From: Candidatus Levyibacteriota bacterium | GTDB taxonomy: Bacteria; Patescibacteriota; Microgenomatia; Levybacterales; UBA12049 | Length of the DNA stretch: 64,000 bases | Direction: 5' to 3' | NCBI GenBank assembly: GCA_030651475.1 | Contig: JAUSEW010000029.1 | Location: 21,777-85,776 of the forward strand | Shown: positions 2,784 to 37,068 of the stretch, in pieces | How positions within the stretch are numbered: position 1 is the stretch's first letter | Layout of the letters: each line of letters begins with the position of its first letter | Program-made: the position numbers and the translations under genes | Notes under the pieces: generated by a model | What the model saw: only the letters and a program-made list of their open reading frames with translations | What the model was told of the DNA's origin: nothing | Database searches by the model: none

Positions 2784-4895
2784 ATGGCTGAAGATAAAAG
2801 ATATGTTGAATTAGATCACATCAGAAACATTGGCATTATTGCCCATATTGACGCGGGTAAAACCACGACTACCGAGCGTATTTTGTACTATACAGGGAAA
2901 ACCTACAAAATCGGAGATATTGATGAGGGGACAACGGTCATGGATTGGATGGAAGAGGAAAAGAAAAGAGGGATCACGATTGTGTCTGCTGCAACTACTG
3001 CATATTGGGGGGGTTACAGATTTAATATTATTGACACTCCTGGACACGTTGATTTTACAGCCGAAGTAGAAAGGTCGCTTCGGGTTTTGGACGGTGGAAT
3101 CACAGTTCTGGATGCAGAAGAAGGAGTTCAATCTCAATCCGAAACTGTCTGGAGACAAGCAGATAAATACAAAGTTCCAAGACTTTGTTTTATTAACAAG
3201 ATGGATAAGGTTGGAGCTGATTTTTTGGCAACTGTCAAAAGCATTGAGGACAGACTCGGAGCAAATACGGCAATTATGGTTTTGCCAATCGGAGCCGAAG
3301 CAACCTTTAAGGGAGTTTATGATTTACTGACCAGAAAATCCGTTATCTGGACAGGAGAAGAATTAGGCGCAAAGTTTGAAATTACTTCGGAAATCCCGGA
3401 AGGAATGGGACAGGAGATTGAAAAATACAGAGCCAAGTTGGTTGAGAAAATTGCAGAAACAGATGATGTGCTGGTCGAAAAATATCTTGCAAATCAAGAG
3501 ATTGGGGTTGAGGAATTAAAGAAAGCCTTAAGGCGGGCAGTTATTGCTTATAAATTAGTTCCGATTTTCGCCGGATCATCCTTGAGGAACAAAGGAGTGC
3601 AGCTTCTTCTGGATGGAGTTGTTGATTATCTTCCATCTCCTGTTGATCTAGATCAAGTGAAAGGAATAAATCCAAAAACAGGGGAAGAAGAAATAAGAAA
3701 ATTAGTTCCCGAAGAGTCAATTGCGGGTTTGGCTTTCAAAATTCAGAATGATCCTCACGTTGGAAAACTTACCTATTTTAGGATTTATTCAGGTAAAGTT
3801 GCGGCCGGAACTTATATTTATAACAGCACTAAAAATATTCAAGAAAGGGTTGGGCGGCTGCTTCTGATGCACTCCAATGAAAGAACGGAAATAAAAGAAG
3901 CGTTTGCCGGAGAAATTATTGCAATCGTCGGACTTAAAGACACGACCACAGGAGATACGCTTTGTGATCCGGAAAAACCAATTATTTTAGAAAAAATTAC
4001 CTTCCCGGAGCCGGTTATATCCCTAGCAATTGAGCCAAAAACGAAATCAGATCAGGAGAAATTGGGATACGCTTTAAAACGTTTGATGGATGAAGATCCG
4101 ACATTTCAGGTTAAGACCAATCATGAAACAGGACAGACAATTATTTCAGGAGTTGGAGAGCTGCAGCTTGAGGTTAAAGTAAATACCATGAAGGCTGATT
4201 TCGGAGTTGAGGCCAATGTCGGAGACCCACAAGTGGCCTACAAAGAAACTATTAGCAGGGAAGCGGAAGGTGAAGGAAAATACATCAAGCAATCCGGAGG
4301 AAAAGGACAATACGGACATTGTCTGTTGAGAGTTACGCCTAAGCCTCGCGGAGAAGGTTTTGAATTTGTTAATGGTGTCAAGGGAGGAGCAATTCCGGCA
4401 ATATTTATATCCTCGATTGAAAAAGGAGTTAAGGAAACAATGGAAAACGGAATTTTGTTGGGTTACCCGATGGTAGATATGACGGTTACGGTTTATGACG
4501 GGTCCTATCATGAAGTTGATTCTTCAGATATTGCCTTTAAGATCGCAGCTTCCCAAGCCTTGCAGGCAGCAACCAAAAAAGCAGGCCTGACACTTTTGGA
4601 ACCAATCATGAAAGTTGAAGTAACAACCCCAAATGAATTTATGGGAGATGTGATTGGAGATTTGTCTTCCAAAAGAGCGCAGATTTCAGGGACAGAAGAG
4701 AGAAGCAGAGCAACGATTATTTTGGCAATGGTGCCTTTGTCAGGGCTTCCTGGTTATGCAACTGCGCTTCGCTCTATGTCTCAAGGCAGAGCGTCTTATT
4801 ATATGGAACCTTCACATTATGAGGAAGTGCCCAAAAATATTCAAGAAGAAATGTTGGCCAAATCTACATTTACAGGAAGGGTTAATGCACAGTAA
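2784..4895 (+). CDS. fusA: translation elongation factor G
   Basis: 703 aa; AHIDAGKTTTTERIL, DTPGHVDF, NKMD GTPase motifs and EF-G domain order. Confidence 0.97.
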   Translation: MAEDKRYVELDHIRNIGIIAHIDAGKTTTTERILYYTGKTYKIGDIDEGTTVMDWMEEEKKRGITIVSAATTAYWGGYRFNIIDTPGHVDFTAEVERSLRVLDGGITVLDAEEGVQSQSETVWRQADKYKVPRLCFINKMDKVGADFLATVKSIEDRLGANTAIMVLPIGAEATFKGVYDLLTRKSVIWTGEELGAKFEITSEIPEGMGQEIEKYRAKLVEKIAETDDVLVEKYLANQEIGVEELKKALRRAVIAYKLVPIFAGSSLRNKGVQLLLDGVVDYLPSPVDLDQVKGINPKTGEEEIRKLVPEESIAGLAFKIQNDPHVGKLTYFRIYSGKVAAGTYIYNSTKNIQERVGRLLLMHSNERTEIKEAFAGEIIAIVGLKDTTTGDTLCDPEKPIILEKITFPEPVISLAIEPKTKSDQEKLGYALKRLMDEDPTFQVKTNHETGQTIISGVGELQLEVKVNTMKADFGVEANVGDPQVAYKETISREAEGEGKYIKQSGGKGQYGHCLLRVTPKPRGEGFEFVNGVKGGAIPAIFISSIEKGVKETMENGILLGYPMVDMTVTVYDGSYHEVDSSDIAFKIAASQALQAATKKAGLTLLEPIMKVEVTTPNEFMGDVIGDLSSKRAQISGTEERSRATIILAMVPLSGLPGYATALRSMSQGRASYYMEPSHYEEVPKNIQEEMLAKSTFTGRVNAQ

Positions 4896-4910
4896 ATAGT
4901 AAATAGGGTA

Positions 4911-4939
4911 TTGACTAGAAGGAAAAAATATTGTATATT
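4911..4939 (+). promoter_or_regulatory. sigma70-like promoter for tuf (TTGACT-17 bp-TATATT)
   Basis: hexamers and 17-bp spacer read directly, about 44 bp upstream of tuf ATG. Confidence 0.5.
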
Positions 4940-4982
4940 TATCAGTGACCTTCCAAAAGGTTAATTTTTTTTGTAAAATTTT

Positions 4983-6170
4983 ATGGCAGAAGCAACTAAA
5001 TATCAAAGAACCAAACCGCATGTTAATATAGGAACCATTGGTCATGTTGACCACGGTAAGACCACTCTTACTGCGGCTATTGCAACAGTTTTGTCTAAAA
5101 AAGGAATGGCGCAGGCCAAAAAGTACGAAGACATAGATAATGCTCCGGAAGAAAAAGCAAGAGGCGTTACCATAAATCTTACTCATATTGAATATGAGAC
5201 AGAAAAACGTCATTATGCTCATATCGATGCTCCTGGACATGCAGATTACATAAAAAATATGATTACAGGCGCCGCTCAAATGGATGGCGCTATTTTGGTT
5301 GTTTCAGCACCGGACGGGCCAATGCCTCAAACAAGAGAGCATATTCTTTTGGCACGACAAGTCGGAGTTCCTGCAATTGTAGTATTTCTTAACAAAGTAG
5401 ATATGGTACAGGATCAGGAATTATTAGACTTGGTAGAAATGGAAGTCAGAGAACTTTTGACTAAGTACCAATATCCGGGAAAAGACACTCCTATTATAAG
5501 AGGTTCGGCTCTTAAAGCTTTGGAGGGAGATCCGGAAGCGGAAAAACAAATAATGGCCCTAATGGATGCAGTTGATACATTTATACCTACTCCAAAAAGA
5601 GATACGGATAAGCCATTCTTGATGCCGGTTGAGGATGTTTTCTCTATTAAAGGCAGAGGAACAGTTGTAACAGGCAGAATTGAAAGAGGAATTGTCAAAA
5701 TTAACGATGCGGTAGAGATAGTCGGACTTAAAGAAACAAAACCAACTATAGTAACAGGTGTTGAAATGTTCAAAAAGCAATTGGATGAGGGTCAGGCAGG
5801 AGATAATGTCGGAGTTTTGCTTCGAGGAATTGAAAAAACAGATGTGGAAAGAGGACAAGTTGTTGCCAAACCGGGAAGTATAACACCCCATAAAGAGTTT
5901 GAGGCGGAGGGATATATTCTTACCAAAGAAGAAGGCGGACGCCATACACCATTCTTTACAGGATACAGGCCTCAATTTTACATTAGAACAACCGATGTGA
6001 CTGCGGAAGTTACTCTTCCAAAAGGTGTAGAAATGGTAATGCCTGGAGACAATACCAAAATGACAGTTAAGCTTATTGCTCCGGTAGCTTTGGAAGAAGG
6101 GCTTAGATTTGCCATCCGCGAAGGCGGAAAAACAGTCGGAGCCGGCGTTATCTCCAAAATAATCGCTTAA
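4983..6170 (+). CDS. tuf: translation elongation factor Tu
   Basis: 395 aa; [25 protein letters not shown] motifs. Confidence 0.98.
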
Positions 6171-6215
6171 GTTTTTAGATTTTAATTTTTTAATCCTCTG
6201 CCCTACAAAAATTAT

Positions 6216-6476
6216 ATGGCTCCAGAAATAGAAATATCACGAGACCAGGAAATTAAGGTATGTCAGTGGATTAAAGCAAAAGGTACGGAAGAATGGCTTT
6301 ATACAGCTGAAAACGACGAAATTGCTATGGCTTCCATCGTAGACAAAGAACCATTAATAATATTTCCGCATTATGCAAATGAAGCAAAGCCCATGCTATA
6401 TTGTAGCGAAAAACTTGCATCCGAACTTGCAAAAGATGGAATCATAACCCTTCCAAAACCTCAACAGAAGAAATAG
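6216..6476 (+). CDS. hypothetical small protein inserted between tuf and rpsJ
   Basis: 86-aa ORF, no recognisable motif. Confidence 0.3.
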   Translation: MAPEIEISRDQEIKVCQWIKAKGTEEWLYTAENDEIAMASIVDKEPLIIFPHYANEAKPMLYCSEKLASELAKDGIITLPKPQQKK

Positions 6477-6539
6477 AAATGCCCCAAATTTTTATTTTTT
6501 ATTTTTGAGTTTTGATATTTGATTTAATGTAAGTGCTCC

Positions 6540-6568
6540 TTGAATAATATTTTCTTATATAGTAAAAT
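6540..6568 (+). promoter_or_regulatory. sigma70-like promoter for rpsJ (TTGAAT-17 bp-TAAAAT), -10 ends 6 nt before the ATG
   Basis: read directly; no room for a Shine-Dalgarno leader. Confidence 0.45.
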
Positions 6569-6574
6569 AGCTGA

Positions 6575-6883
6575 ATGCCTAAAGGAAGAATACGCGTTCG
6601 TTTAAAAAGTTACGATGCAAGAGTGATAGATCTTTGCTGCCAGCAAATCCTAGATACTGCAATTAGGACTGGAGCAAAGGTTGTAGGTCCTATTCCTCTA
6701 CCTACCAAGAGAACTGTTTACGCAGTTAACAAATCTCCATTTATAGATAAAGACGCACGAGACCATTTCGAAATGAGAGTGCATAAAAGATTAATAGATA
6801 TAGTTTCCCCGACAGATAAAACAATTGATAGTCTTACTCATCTCGAACTCCCCGCAGGCGTCAACGTGGAAATAAAAATGTAA
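6575..6883 (+). CDS. rpsJ: 30S ribosomal protein S10
   Basis: 102 aa; IRVRLKSYD..LD........GA.V.GP.PLPT consensus. Confidence 0.95.
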   Translation: MPKGRIRVRLKSYDARVIDLCCQQILDTAIRTGAKVVGPIPLPTKRTVYAVNKSPFIDKDARDHFEMRVHKRLIDIVSPTDKTIDSLTHLELPAGVNVEIKM

Positions 6884-7066
6884 GTTGTTTCTTCGCGCTC
6901 CACCTAAAAATACTCCGTTTGCTAATCGGGGGATGCGATTCCCCCTCCCATCATACGCTTTGTTTCAAATGCGAACAAACAGAATGAAAGAGGGAATTAG
7001 GTAATTCCGCAGGTGTAGCTACAAAAACACCCCAAGGGTGTAAGATGTTGGTTTGCCAAAAGTAGG

Positions 7067-7510
7067 TTAGGGTTTCGTTCCCGTGTCTTTCGAGCTAAAG
7101 CCTAAGTGGCTTTTTAGCGCATTAAGCATGATTTGTTTTGCTTGTTCAATTAGCCCATCTTTCGTTTTATCATCCAGGACTTTATTCTTAAAGCGGAAAA
7201 TCATGTAGGGTTGATCTCCGTAAGCTACAAAATAGTCGTTGATTACGTCTTCTGGTATTTCTAATCCAATAAGTTGTGCTAAAGTTGCTTTTCTTACTTC
7301 CAAATCTCTTTGGTAAAGAGGTCTGAACATTGGCAGGAGAAATTGTTCCTCATCGCAATTGAATCTCCTTTTCCTGAACTCTTTTATTAATTCTTCCGAA
7401 GACGAAACCGCTCTGAGTATAACAACGTTATCTGCAATGTTTTTTTCTGGAATTCCTAATGCCAAAAGCTTTTCTTCCGAGCTTTGTCCATTAATTCTAG
7501 CTTCAGCCAT
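7067..7510 (-). CDS. hypothetical protein on opposite strand between rpsJ and rplC
   Basis: 147-aa ORF; no family recognised. Confidence 0.4.
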   Translation of the reverse strand: MAEARINGQSSEEKLLALGIPEKNIADNVVILRAVSSSEELIKEFRKRRFNCDEEQFLLPMFRPLYQRDLEVRKATLAQLIGLEIPEDVINDYFVAYGDQPYMIFRFKNKVLDDKTKDGLIEQAKQIMLNALKSHLGFSSKDTGTKP

Positions 7511-7635
7511 ATCGACGAATTATAACTTCCTGTTATTGTAAAAGCAAATTTAAACTTATTCTAGCCTCGGGAGAATGGTAGCAGAATAATTTTAAAAATA
7601 TGCTGAAATAAATTCAGAATGACAATTGGAAGCTA

Positions 7636-7664
7636 TTGCATTTATCCCCGTCTTCTTATATAAT
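7636..7664 (+). promoter_or_regulatory. sigma70-like promoter for rplC (TTGCAT-17 bp-TATAAT)
   Basis: read directly. Confidence 0.5.
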
Positions 7665-7744
7665 TACCTTTGAAAGTCATGTTTAACCGACTGGAGGTAA
7701 ATAAGGCTGCATAAATAGAAAGTTTTTGGGATTTTTTCCCTGAA

Positions 7745-7768
7745 GCGACTGTGTGCAGTCGCTTTTTT
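7745..7768 (+). terminator. intrinsic-terminator-like hairpin (GCGACTG-tgtg-CAGTCGC + TTTTTT) in the rplC leader, candidate attenuator
   Basis: perfect 7-bp stem, 4-nt loop, 6-T tract, 14 nt before the rplC ATG. Confidence 0.5.
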
Positions 7769-7781
7769 GGTTTTTGAGATT

Positions 7782-8552
7782 ATGAATGCAATATACGGTA
7801 CGAAAATAAAACAAGCGCAAATGTTCCTGCAAAACGGAACGCGTATCCCTGTTACTCAAATAAAGGTGGACGGTAATGTCGTAGCTGGAATAAAAACAAA
7901 AGACAAAGACTTATACGATGCTTTGCAAATAGGTGTTGGAGTAAGAAAAAGAGCAAATAAATCATTCCTTGGATTTGCAAAAAAAGCAAGTTTAACATTT
8001 ATTCCTAAGTTTTTACGCGAGATAAAGGTTGCGGATGGAGAAAGTCTGCCAAAATTAGGAGATGTTATAAAACCACAAGATGTATTTAAGCCCGGAGATA
8101 TTGTGGATGCCATTGGTATATCCAAGGGTAAAGGTTTTGCCGGAGTTGTTAAAAGGCACCATTTTAAAGGCGGACCCAGAACTCACGGACAATCAGATAG
8201 AGAAAGAGCCCCAGGATCAATTGGACAAACCACAACACCGGGAAGAGTTTATAAAGGAAAAAGAATGGCAGGCCATATGGGCTCGGAAAAAGTTACCATA
8301 AAAAATCTAGAAATCGTCGCAGTAGACGATATTTTTTTGTACGTCAAAGGTTTGGTTCCCGGTAGCGTTAACAGTCTTTTGAAAATAGAAAAAGTTGGAG
8401 AAAGCAAAAAGTTTGTTCCTCTGTATAAAGAGTCCTCCTCCGCTGAAGCTTCGGCGGGCAAGGAAGAGAAGATAGAAGTCGTAAAAGAGCCAAAAGCTGA
8501 AGCTAAGAAGGAAGATAATCAAACTAAGGAGGTAAAAGAAAATGCCAGTTAA
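7782..8552 (+). CDS. rplC: 50S ribosomal protein L3 with Lys/Glu-rich C-terminal extension
   Basis: L3 consensus (GTKIGMTQ-like MNAIYGTKIKQAQMF, KGKGFAGVVKRHHF); ATG at 7782 preferred over TTG at 7767 in ORF track. Confidence 0.9.
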   Translation: MNAIYGTKIKQAQMFLQNGTRIPVTQIKVDGNVVAGIKTKDKDLYDALQIGVGVRKRANKSFLGFAKKASLTFIPKFLREIKVADGESLPKLGDVIKPQDVFKPGDIVDAIGISKGKGFAGVVKRHHFKGGPRTHGQSDRERAPGSIGQTTTPGRVYKGKRMAGHMGSEKVTIKNLEIVAVDDIFLYVKGLVPGSVNSLLKIEKVGESKKFVPLYKESSSAEASAGKEEKIEVVKEPKAEAKKEDNQTKEVKENAS

Positions 8553-9321
8553 AAAAAACGCAAAACGCACCCATTCGACAGGCTCAGGGCAAAACGCAAA
8601 AAAAGTAATTAAAAAGACTGCAGTTAAAAAGCCTGTTATTAAAAAGGTTGTTGCTAAAAAACCAAAGAGCACTTTATCTTTGGAAGTTTTTGATACGAAA
8701 GGAAAATTATCCGAAACCATTTCACTGCCAAAAGAGATATTCGGAGTAGAAGTTAACGATAAACTTCTTGCCCAAGCTGTCAGAGTTTATTTAGCCAATC
8801 AAAGAGAGGGATCTGCGAGGACAAAAACACGAAGTACTGTTCACGGCACAACTAAAAAGGTTTGGCAGCAAAAAGGCACGGGAAGAGCCAGGCATGGTTC
8901 CAGAAAGGCGCCTATTTTTGTTCATGGAGGAATTGCTTGGGGACCAAGACCAAGAGATTTTTCGCTTTCTCTTTCTAAGAAAATGAGGAAAGCGGCATTA
9001 TTTTCGGCTTTATCTCTAAAACAAAAATCCAATGAAATTAAAGGCATAAAAGGTTTAGAAAAACTGACACCAAAAACGAAATTAATAGTAGAGGTTTTGA
9101 ATAATTTGGGAGTAAATAAAGACAATAAAAAAATACTTTTGATAACGCCAAAGGGAAAAGAATTTGAAAACGTTTATCGAGCGGCAAGAAATATTCAAGG
9201 AGTGAGCCTTTTGCCGGCTGACATAATTAATGCATATCAAGTTATGGATAATAAACTGATTTTGCTTATGGATAAATCTCTGGATGTTATCACAAGCAAT
9301 TTTCTAAAGGAGAAAGCATAA
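8542..9321 (+). CDS. rplD: 50S ribosomal protein L4 with Lys-rich N-terminal extension
   Basis: 259 aa; L4 core (VHGTTKKVWQQKGTGRARHGS). Confidence 0.9.
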   Translation: MPVKKNAKRTHSTGSGQNAKKVIKKTAVKKPVIKKVVAKKPKSTLSLEVFDTKGKLSETISLPKEIFGVEVNDKLLAQAVRVYLANQREGSARTKTRSTVHGTTKKVWQQKGTGRARHGSRKAPIFVHGGIAWGPRPRDFSLSLSKKMRKAALFSALSLKQKSNEIKGIKGLEKLTPKTKLIVEVLNNLGVNKDNKKILLITPKGKEFENVYRAARNIQGVSLLPADIINAYQVMDNKLILLMDKSLDVITSNFLKEKA

Positions 9322-36929: not shown

Positions 36930-37000
36930 GTCGGGGCGCTGAGAATCGAACTCAGACCACATGACCCCCAGCCACGCATTCTACCACTAAACTACGCCCC
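36930..37000 (-). tRNA. tRNA-Pro (anticodon GGG)
   Basis: folded by hand: 7-bp acceptor stem starting C1-G72, T-arm CTGAG-TTCGATT-CTCAG, anticodon loop CTGGGGG with U33 and G37; no encoded CCA. Confidence 0.8.
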
Positions 37001-37068
37001 GTTTTGCAAAGCAGAATCGAATTTGATCTATTGCATTATAACAAAATATTGCTACAATAAACATAATT

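Follow-up and report, generated by a model that had tools for sequence, protein, structure and literature searches.

The str-S10-spc cluster is the textbook case of conserved gene order, and it forms the backbone of the concatenated ribosomal-protein trees that place the lineages of the candidate phyla radiation (CPR). In Escherichia coli, the junction between tuf and rpsJ is the boundary of two operons, str and S10, and of the two junctions rpsJ/rplC alone is internal to a classical operon. The leader of the E. coli S10 operon is known for L4-mediated, NusA-dependent transcription attenuation together with translational control. In our study, we examined a 64-kb stretch (hereafter the window) from a 90-kb contig of a metagenome-assembled genome (MAG) of Candidatus Levybacteria (CPR/Patescibacteria), in which tuf, rpsJ and rplC are separated by two genes, ORF86 and ORF147, and rplC is preceded by a leader of the terminator type. 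All coordinates are positions of the window. Both genes carry the annotation 'hypothetical protein' in the assembly (Q7R31_04035 and Q7R31_04045).

S10 leaders of the E. coli type are reported to be narrowly distributed (PMC3616713). A candidate leader, L4-Archaeoglobi, was reported directly upstream of the rplC-rplD-rplW-rplB operon, and the motif was rated uncertain (Eckert and Weinberg, 2020; PMC7247131). In Pseudomonadales, a lineage-restricted gene, GU_19737823, was found to hold a conserved place between rpsF-rpsR and rplI (Vanni et al., 2022; PMC9132574). No description of the rpsJ-rplC junction in CPR was found in the literature searched, and no ribosomal-protein regulatory RNA for CPR was found in Rfam 15 or in a limited literature search.

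The reading that we favour, and hold to be reasonably probable, is that the str/S10 cluster is split around rpsJ, that both of its junctions are permissive slots, that rplC has its own promoter and a terminator-type leader, that ORF147 is an accessory gene and that ORF86 is position-locked. From these elements we infer that the cluster of Levybacteria would be expressed as separate transcription units around rpsJ, with rpsJ going with tuf, and that the rplC-led block would have its own promoter followed by a leader of about 100 nt, closed by an intrinsic terminator shortly before the rplC start. Since rplC would then be transcribed independently of rpsJ, the DNA from the rpsJ stop to the rplC promoter would be free to vary. 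The rpsJ-rplC stretch would thus have become a recurrent slot for accessory genes, and the tuf-rpsJ stretch likewise, to a lesser degree. The conserved leader and the separate rplC promoter probably explain the tolerance of insertions at the rpsJ-rplC junction. The leader, with its terminator and antiterminator, is the most generally interesting and the more unusual feature of the locus.

The order along the window was found to be fusA, tuf, ORF86, rpsJ, a 183-bp spacer, ORF147, a 271-bp spacer, rplC and rplD, as listed below (aa, amino acids).

2784-4895: fusA
4983-6170, plus strand: tuf (EF-Tu), 395 aa, closing the str-type block fusA-tuf
6216-6476, plus strand: ORF86, 86 aa, between tuf and rpsJ
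6575-6883, plus strand: rpsJ (ribosomal protein S10, also NusE), Pfam PF00338 Ribosomal_S10, E 3.4e-34
7067-7510, minus strand: ORF147, 147 aa, between rpsJ and rplC
7782-8552, plus strand: rplC (ribosomal protein L3), Pfam PF00297, heading the block that continues with rplD, rplW and rplB
from 8542, plus strand: rplD, overlapping rplC by 11 nt

The gene order and coordinates agree with those of the first-pass annotation, which had noticed the two interruptions. It had placed both junctions inside the most conserved operon in bacteria; this applies to rpsJ/rplC, but tuf/rpsJ is in E. coli terms the str/S10 operon boundary. The gap between rpsJ and rplC in the window is 898 bp, against a few tens of bp at most in a canonical contiguous S10 operon. 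The start of rplC is the ATG at 7782, where the N-terminus MNAIYGTKIKQAQMFLQNGTRIPVT lines up with that of the relatives; a start at TTG 7767 or at position 7781/7783 was rejected, as the alignment favours ATG 7782.

For comparison, 80 of the 409 rpsJ-linked loci related to the window were sampled, representing 80 Levybacteria species, and tuf, rpsJ and rplC were located in each. The relatives (L001 and onwards) are MAGs, and some of the records carry the wrong label 'uncultured Gammaproteobacteria'. The rpsJ of the window is 86-95% identical to that of the 80 loci, and its tuf is 83-91% identical to that of 77 loci.

The region between ORF147 and rplC contained the following elements.

7636-7664, plus strand: putative rplC promoter, TTGCAT (7636-7641), 17 nt, TATAAT (7659-7664), read by eye
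7665-7781, plus strand: rplC leader, containing the GGAGG box, antiterminator box, small hairpin and terminator hairpin
7693-7697, plus strand: GGAGG box
7706-7713, plus strand: candidate antiterminator box GCTGCATA
7728-7740, plus strand: small hairpin, variable among relatives
7742-7765, plus strand: terminator hairpin GAAGCGACTG-TGTG-CAGTCGCTTT, with a U-run to 7775, 7 nt before ATG 7782

The -10 box of the putative promoter was near-invariant across 30 aligned relatives, in agreement with the earlier proposal that rplC carries its own promoter. In the relatives, the elements upstream of the terminator were found in the order TATAAT, GGAGG box, a conserved box (CTACATAG in class 1 and AGCCTAA in class 2) and the variable small hairpin. 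In 68 of 74 loci (~92%), a hairpin followed by a T-run was present within the ~160 nt that precede the rplC ATG, mostly 8-40 nt away from it; most of the remaining six visibly hold the hairpin and miss the strict criteria. By chance, about 2.3 terminator-like sites are expected per 3.2 kb on both strands, that is, about 0.06 per 160 nt, and the occurrence in 68 loci is therefore far from chance. The stems fell into the classes GCGAC/GTCGC, GTAGCC/GGCTAC, GTGGCC/GGCCAC, GATAGCC/GGCTATC and GGTCGC/GCGACC, all of which pair. In a MAFFT alignment of 30 class-1 leaders, the terminator was 93.7% paired, compared with 27-66% when the partner was slid, and RNAalifold predicted the same terminator hairpin.

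The conserved box was found to be complementary to the loop and the 3' arm of the terminator, with 90.4% of the positions paired, compared with 25-48% when slid. Changes on both sides of this antiterminator pairing were observed, from CTACAT/ATGTAG to CTACTT/AAGTGG or CTGCAT/GTGCAG. A duplex-energy test over 71 loci placed the antiterminator pairing at a constant offset from the GGAGG box. The minimum free energy (MFE) of the window leader (7672-7775) was -30.4 kcal/mol (z -3.17), and the MFE structure corresponded to the extended antiterminator form. A covariance model of the leader matched the 64-kb window once, at 7651-7784 (102 bits), and in 41 relatives it matched each locus once, just upstream of rplC. 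No family of Rfam 15 matched the leader. In the loci with insertions, the terminator always stays with rplC and never with rpsJ, and the insertions all lie upstream of the leader, which indicates that the leader belongs to the rplC transcription unit. The space between the U-run and the rplC ATG leaves no room for a promoter, so that the operon must be read through the terminator, as in the architecture of an attenuator. Three features expected of an attenuator were found at the locus, namely a terminator with a U-run between promoter and start, pairing that is kept in the relatives, and an antiterminator pairing that excludes the terminator.

The leader is most likely a transcription attenuator, in which pairing of the box GCTGCATA with the terminator loop and 3' arm would allow read-through, and termination would be favoured by any factor that prevents the box from pairing. 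Candidates for such a factor, by analogy, are L4, L3 and a ribosome or 30S subunit retained at the GGAGG box. A leader peptide of three codons (TTG GCT ACA TAG) was considered as a general sensor and rejected, as it is absent in the window, L030, L045 and L052. A short repeated insert, 'TTCGGCAGGCTCAGGA' or 'TTCGACTTTGCTCAGG', was seen between the rplC U-run and the ATG in L009, L011 (two copies), L018, L023 and L030, and looks like a miniature interspersed repeat.

Several observations weigh against this account of the promoter and leader. The -35 hexamer of rplC lies below the scan threshold, and the promoters and terminators described here are readings against consensus only. The hairpin survey demanded pairing, so that the conservation of stems across classes is partly ascertained. 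The mean z of the antiterminator duplex was only -1.5 over the 71 loci, and the covariation in class 1 is modest, as two pairs change on both sides and the score was reached by 3-5 of 500 shuffles. The mini-ORF of three codons follows the GGAGG box in many loci but neither in the window nor in L030, so that ribosome sensing by a leader peptide would not be general. A different explanation of the same hairpin is that it is the terminator of a distinct gene for a small RNA (about 100 nt) or of transcription from upstream, and that rplC is expressed by constitutive partial read-through. The promoter, the body of about 100 nt and the strong terminator do make up a complete small transcription unit; the 8-40 nt from the U-run to the rplC ATG, without a Shine-Dalgarno sequence, would let the RNA have a function of its own. 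However, the lack of promoter room after the terminator would oblige the essential rplC operon to be read through, the alternative pairing with the terminator 3' arm is conserved and partly covarying, and the element stays with rplC whatever lies upstream and has no match among the small RNAs of Rfam. We therefore consider the small RNA explanation rather unlikely and retain the attenuator as the preferred reading of the leader.

The distances around rpsJ were found to vary widely among the Levybacteria, as given below.

tuf-rpsJ gap, 77 loci: median 63 bp, range 4-1887 bp, at least 200 bp in 10 loci
rpsJ-rplC gap, 73 loci: median 229 bp, range 111-3839 bp, at least 430 bp in 26 loci

The rpsJ-rplC gap was 111-330 bp in 47 loci, and in three further loci rplC lay more than 4 kb off. 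With a minimum of 111 bp, rpsJ and rplC are never tightly coupled in this sample. Both junctions of rpsJ are thus habitual variable sites within Levybacteria. The interruption is unusual for bacteria in general, as first supposed, but it is not unusual within Levybacteria and not a peculiarity of the window genome. The cargo of the rpsJ-rplC slot in the relatives included the following genes.

restriction-modification (type I): HsdR in L044, HsdM/S in L017
toxins: PIN in L006, Gp49/HigB-like in L032
enzymes: peptide deformylase, cytidine deaminase, tRNA-editing domain (tRNA_edit)
others: DedA/VTT, PMT_2 glycosyltransferase, CAP protein and many unknowns

The rplC leader of L030 was near-identical to that of the window. 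In the place of ORF147, L030 was found to contain a RelE-like and Phd-like pair (by reading) and a 191-aa gene, all on the minus strand, and it contained no ORF86. The window and L030 become similar precisely from the rplC -35 box onwards and have different cargo upstream of it, which fixes the right edge of the variable slot. The slot therefore has the same flanks (rpsJ stop and rplC promoter) and differing cargo, as is expected of a variable islet or hot spot. The contigs of L006, L014, L034 and L039 end 300-700 bp after rpsJ and the contig of L012 starts at rpsJ; contig breaks in or near the rpsJ-rplC gap suggest strain-variable cargo that disrupts assembly.

ORF147 is a real gene. A homology search recovered four homologues with 49-76% identity, three of which (L001-L003) lie at the rpsJ-rplC junction, divergent from rplC in L001 and convergent with rpsJ in L002 and L003; the fourth (L004) follows a HicB-HicA pair. 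The pairwise ratio of nonsynonymous to synonymous substitution (dN/dS) was 0.15-0.31 (about 0.25), with dS up to ~0.8 for copies at the same site, which indicates that the gene has been kept at the site for a long time under purifying selection. A profile search of 1.84 billion cluster representatives found 101 clusters of the family at E <= 1e-3. The members are mostly stand-alone proteins of 130-150 aa, and a few are C-terminal domains of longer proteins; the family is rare, has no name and is predicted to be all-helical. ORF147 and 61 family members showed no match in Pfam, NCBIfam or PADLOC and none to a toxin or antitoxin family, and the same was found for the fused relatives; ORF147 had no match in PHROGs and none to a ribosomal protein or factor in Pfam or NCBIfam. 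A search with the alignment of five sequences found one metagenome locus and none of 2.9 million viral contigs.

Among the more distant relatives, a PemK module adjoins L086, a RelE-like pair adjoins L095, L088 lies near Mrr and DinB, and L090 is a fusion within a type IV secretion (conjugation) cluster of the TrbC/TraC/VirB4 type, next to an IS110 transposase. The relatives adjoin complete HicAB, PemK or RelE-like modules and replace no partner in them, and ORF147 itself stands alone between rpsJ and rplC, so the two-gene layout of a toxin-antitoxin system was not found. The family is missing from the rpsJ-rplC site in all 80 species representatives and shows no consistent co-location with ribosomal genes. 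ORF147 is most likely a self-contained accessory cassette of the mobilome type on the opposite strand, judged by its sequence context, and not a component of the ribosome. The earlier suggestion for the two ORFs, of a lineage-specific function either ribosome-associated or selfish, can be divided between them: 'accessory or selfish' fits ORF147 better than 'ribosome-associated', given the neighbours of HicAB, PemK, RelE or type IV secretion type, and for ORF86 a link to translation is plausible, as described below.

The putative signals around ORF147 and rpsJ were as follows.

7519-7547, minus strand: promoter-like site of ORF147, TTGCTT (7547-7542), 17 nt, TATAAT (7524-7519), 8 nt before the ATG, read by eye and conserved in L001
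7027-7041, minus strand: hairpin ACACCC-CAA-GGGTGT, with ACACCCTTGGGGTGT and then TTTTG on the minus strand, from the terminator scan
6928-6945, plus strand: hairpin GGGGGA-TGCGAT-TCCCCC, 45 nt past the rpsJ stop, read in the sequence and in the MFE and centroid folds
6540-6568, plus strand: promoter-like site of rpsJ, TTGAAT, 17 nt, TAAAAT, from the consensus scan

The promoter scan passed over 7519-7547 and flagged instead TTGTCA (7625) and CATATT (7597). Between these two hexamers lies the palindrome CTGAA-ATAAA-TTCAG (7603-7617), conserved in L001, and an inverted repeat ATTCT..AGAAT (7558-7576) upstream of ORF147 is conserved in L001 as a perfect 8-bp stem; both may represent an operator or a structure of the 5' untranslated region. 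The hairpin at 7027-7041 sits 26 nt downstream of the ORF147 stop, with a similar hairpin at the equivalent place in L030, and it reads as an intrinsic terminator of ORF147. The cassette would therefore run on the minus strand from its own promoter to its own terminator. A role of ORF147 as a divergent regulator of rplC was rejected, as the L002 copy is divergent from an unrelated gene and elsewhere the family is not near rplC; this unrelated gene is a hypothetical one of 216 aa (L002 68-718, minus in the locus), and the slot in L002 holds at least two cargo genes. A 17-nt repeat with 76% identity flanks ORF147 and is at chance level, and target-site duplications at ORF86 or ORF147 were rejected since the flanking repeats are no better than chance. 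The 64-kb window contains a single tRNA, at 36930-37001, and none was found near either ORF.

The spacer from 6884 to 7066 was described in the first-pass annotation as a structured element of 183 bp. Its length and both hairpins (6928-6945 and 7027-7041) were recovered, but the spacer as a whole folds no better than chance (z = -0.40; 67 of 200 shuffles fold as well) and was rejected as a structured RNA. The Rfam scan of the spacers (gathering threshold and E <= 10) gave chance-level matches only. The hairpin at 6928-6945 has no U-run and is not kept in L002 or L003, and it is possibly a non-canonical terminator of rpsJ.

Upstream of rpsJ, the block 'cttcttgaata...tatagtaaaata' (cttcTTGAATaat...tataGTAAAATa; 6519-6574 in the window) was also found in L010, L018 and L030. 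The promoter-like block stops 6 nt short of the rpsJ ATG and no Shine-Dalgarno sequence is present there. This suggests that, in the sub-lineage of the window, rpsJ is transcribed from a promoter of its own into an mRNA that is leaderless or nearly so. Another group of Levybacteria (L022, L037, L048, L051, L058, L064, L068, L069, L072, L074, L075 and L080-L083) contained a strongly conserved motif 'ttctttaacagtctgttgg' about 10-30 nt upstream of rpsJ, which is not present in the window, and L035, L053, L056, L070, L073 and L079 contained the variant 'gcacattgactgtctgtt' before rpsJ. It may represent a leader or an operator of rpsJ. Another motif, ATGCCC(C)AAA, was found in the window at 6476-6500, just past ORF86 and upstream of rpsJ. 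It was present directly after the rpsJ stop in L053, L068, L069, L074, L075, L079 and L081-L083, and in many relatives within the rplC promoter, between its -35 and -10 boxes.

ORF86 is likewise a real gene and not an orphan, as it belongs to a position-locked, lineage-specific family. A direct homology search with ORF86 found only itself. The small ORFs between tuf and rpsJ in several relatives were found to share the pattern MP.(I/A)E..., W, EP(M/L)(F/L)I, LYYP and G(V/I)IF(E/D). A profile made from eight of these ORFs, with ORF86 left out, scored ORF86 at 34.6 bits, compared with 10.9 for the best of 2000 shuffles, and it matched ORF86 alone when run against the 386 six-frame ORFs that the window contains. 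Ten further members were recovered from a database with the family alignment. In all eight other contexts examined, the family members immediately precede rpsJ on the same strand, often in tandem: one copy each in L010 and L014, two each in L096 and L097, three in L011, 3-4 in L018 and four in L013/L092. Conserved co-location and co-orientation with ribosomal genes was therefore found for this family. Its members are 86-120 aa long and 19-31% identical, with dN/dS of 0.13-0.65, and they occur in only about 6 of the 80 Levybacteria species representatives. The GC content by codon position of ORF86 resembles that of tuf and rpsJ and is coding-like.

No match to ORF86 was found in Pfam, NCBIfam, PHROGs or PADLOC, the family alignment was likewise without a Pfam match, and a profile search of the PDB sequences gave none. 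The structure model suggests a TBP-like alpha/beta fold of the type of the N-terminal domain of RNase HIII, for which the order beta-alpha-beta4-alpha is expected. The fold assignments come from models with a predicted local distance difference test (pLDDT) score of ~79. The family thus appears as fast-evolving, tandemly duplicating small proteins with a predicted TBP-like fold, found only directly upstream of rpsJ. Neither a terminator nor a clear promoter was seen between tuf and ORF86 by sequence reading and scan, which makes co-transcription likely; ORF86 is probably co-transcribed with tuf or rpsJ. As the family immediately precedes rpsJ in each of the eight other contexts, a link to the translation genes is plausible, and ORF86 is probably a better candidate than ORF147 for a role related to nucleic acids or translation. 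A perfect 12-nt direct repeat, AGAAATAGAAAT, was found near the ORF86 start (6224-6235) and across its stop (6469-6480); about one such repeat is expected by chance in AT-rich sequence. In some relatives, the arrays between tuf and rpsJ contain, besides the ORF86-family genes, a second family of small ORFs (95-111 aa, ending in '...HNGSTGE(K/I)G'), which the window lacks; its positions are as follows.

L014, 3212-3499: second small-ORF family
L018, 2423-2758: second small-ORF family
L092, 96-1060: second small-ORF family

Three other explanations of the two ORFs were considered. They might be annotation artefacts in AT-rich intergenic DNA, with rpsJ and rplC co-transcribed through the region; the absence of family annotations, the direct ORF86 search that returned only itself and the absence of a clear Shine-Dalgarno sequence at either ORF would suit this. 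However, the homologues are under purifying selection, the profile match of ORF86 is far above the shuffles, the GC content of the codon positions is as in coding sequence, both structures are modelled with confidence, and ORF147 would be antisense to any read-through from rpsJ to rplC and has its own putative terminator. The homologues and dN/dS of ORF147 and the profile match of ORF86 effectively refute this explanation, which we regard as extremely improbable, and the refutation named in the first-pass annotation, that the ORFs are not conserved and spurious, did not occur. It is also quite unlikely that both ORFs are lineage-specific ribosome-associated or translation factors, placed for co-expression with the ribosomal proteins. 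The position of the ORF86 family next to rpsJ is what makes a translation link plausible for that gene, but ORF147 lies on the opposite strand with its own putative promoter and terminator, unrelated cargo takes its place in the 80 other species, and its relatives elsewhere are found in toxin-antitoxin or conjugation contexts. The presence of the ORF86 family in about six representatives, its low identity and its dN/dS of up to 0.65 are unlike a core ribosomal factor, and neither ORF matches a known ribosomal protein or factor in Pfam, NCBIfam or the PDB sequences.

The third explanation is that ORF147 is a part of a selfish or defence module (an orphan toxin, an antitoxin or an immunity protein) in a permissive site, and that ORF86 is a similar fast-evolving immunity or anti-defence gene. 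The slot of the relatives does hold a PIN toxin, Gp49/HigB-like genes, RelE/Phd-like pairs and type I restriction-modification genes, and members of the ORF147 family were found beside HicAB, beside PemK, beside a RelE-like gene and in a type IV secretion cluster. The conserved palindrome upstream of ORF147 is as in autoregulated modules, and conflict genes typically duplicate in tandem and diverge fast, as the ORF86 family does. On the other hand, neither the 5027 PADLOC models nor the toxin and antitoxin families of Pfam gave a match, ORF147 has no partner gene in the window, no relative of it was found in the 2.9 million viral contigs, and the strict positional fidelity of the ORF86 family speaks against free mobility. 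We consider this explanation somewhat unlikely as a whole. Two of the observations also weigh against the favoured reading of ORF147 as an accessory gene. The purifying selection on the same-site copies, with dS up to ~0.8, is more that of a domesticated host gene than of a selfish one, and the hallmarks of a mobile element are missing, as neither ORF of the window has an integrase, a transposase or convincing terminal repeats at its sides and no integrase or transposase was found within 2784-9321. We retain the favoured reading, with an accessory ORF147 and a position-locked ORF86 in slots opened by the separate expression of rplC.

A wider joint reading, which we put forward tentatively and regard as doubtful, is that the element of about 100 nt is a new class of CPR attenuator that senses the level of ribosomal protein or the availability of ribosomes and replaces the control upstream of rpsJ, and that the ORF86 family represents a CPR-specific, TBP-like nucleic-acid-binding protein acting on the tuf/rpsJ transcript or on the ribosome. 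If it is true, the attenuator and ORF86 would represent a lineage-specific rewiring of the expression of the most conserved prokaryotic gene cluster, opening the cluster to the traffic of accessory genes. Extensions were also seen in the two ribosomal proteins at the head of the rplC block. The C-terminus of L3 is extended by a tail of about 45 aa (8400-8552) in which Lys, Glu and Ala are frequent, and L4 has a Lys-rich N-terminal extension of about 50 aa (8542-8700), both outside the Pfam core; they may be lineage-specific ribosomal-protein extensions.

The presence of toxin-antitoxin, restriction-modification and unknown genes between rpsJ and rplC is tolerated in a CPR phylum. Such insertions imply that the constraint on rpsJ-rplC comes from shared transcription and is not intrinsic to the junction, and the separate rplC promoter and the attenuator are the likely cause of the tolerance. 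The region may break assemblies, which matters to users of these genes for binning or phylogeny. The rplC leader represents a concrete and short candidate for a ribosomal-protein regulatory RNA in CPR, and the families of ORF86 and ORF147 are now defined by alignments, models and contexts and have become testable candidates.

The variable slot shares with chromosomal integration hot spots and with defence or toxin-antitoxin islets the fixed flanks and the changing cargo, rich in toxin-antitoxin and restriction-modification genes. Unlike integration hot spots, it lies within the most conserved prokaryotic gene cluster and is not marked by an integrase, a tRNA or clear repeats; unlike defence islets, a part of its cargo is housekeeping-like (peptide deformylase, deaminase and tRNA-editing domain). 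The ORF86 family resembles GU_19737823 of Pseudomonadales, which is also a lineage-restricted gene of unknown function with a conserved placement among ribosomal genes (PMC9132574), whereas the operon, the lineage and the family are different, and the fitness data tied to spectinomycin belong to GU_19737823 only. The TBP-like N-terminal domain of RNase HIII shares 15-17% sequence identity with ORF86, with no sequence match in Pfam or PDB, and ORF86 stands alone without a catalytic domain, unlike RNase HIII.

The L4-Archaeoglobi candidate holds the same position before rplC as the leader of Levybacteria (PMC7247131), but it belongs to another domain of life and has no Rfam match to the window; the two are likened here by position. 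In contrast to the E. coli S10 leader, the Levybacteria leader precedes rplC and not rpsJ, which is detached and goes with tuf. It is also shorter (about 100 nt), has no similarity to the E. coli leader in sequence or in Rfam, and contains a GGAGG box and an explicit antiterminator pairing. In both cases, an operon encoding L3, L4, L23 and L2 is preceded by a leader with an intrinsic terminator at its end, a few tens of nt ahead of the first gene, and by analogy the feedback control of ribosomal-protein synthesis would be the likely purpose that they share.

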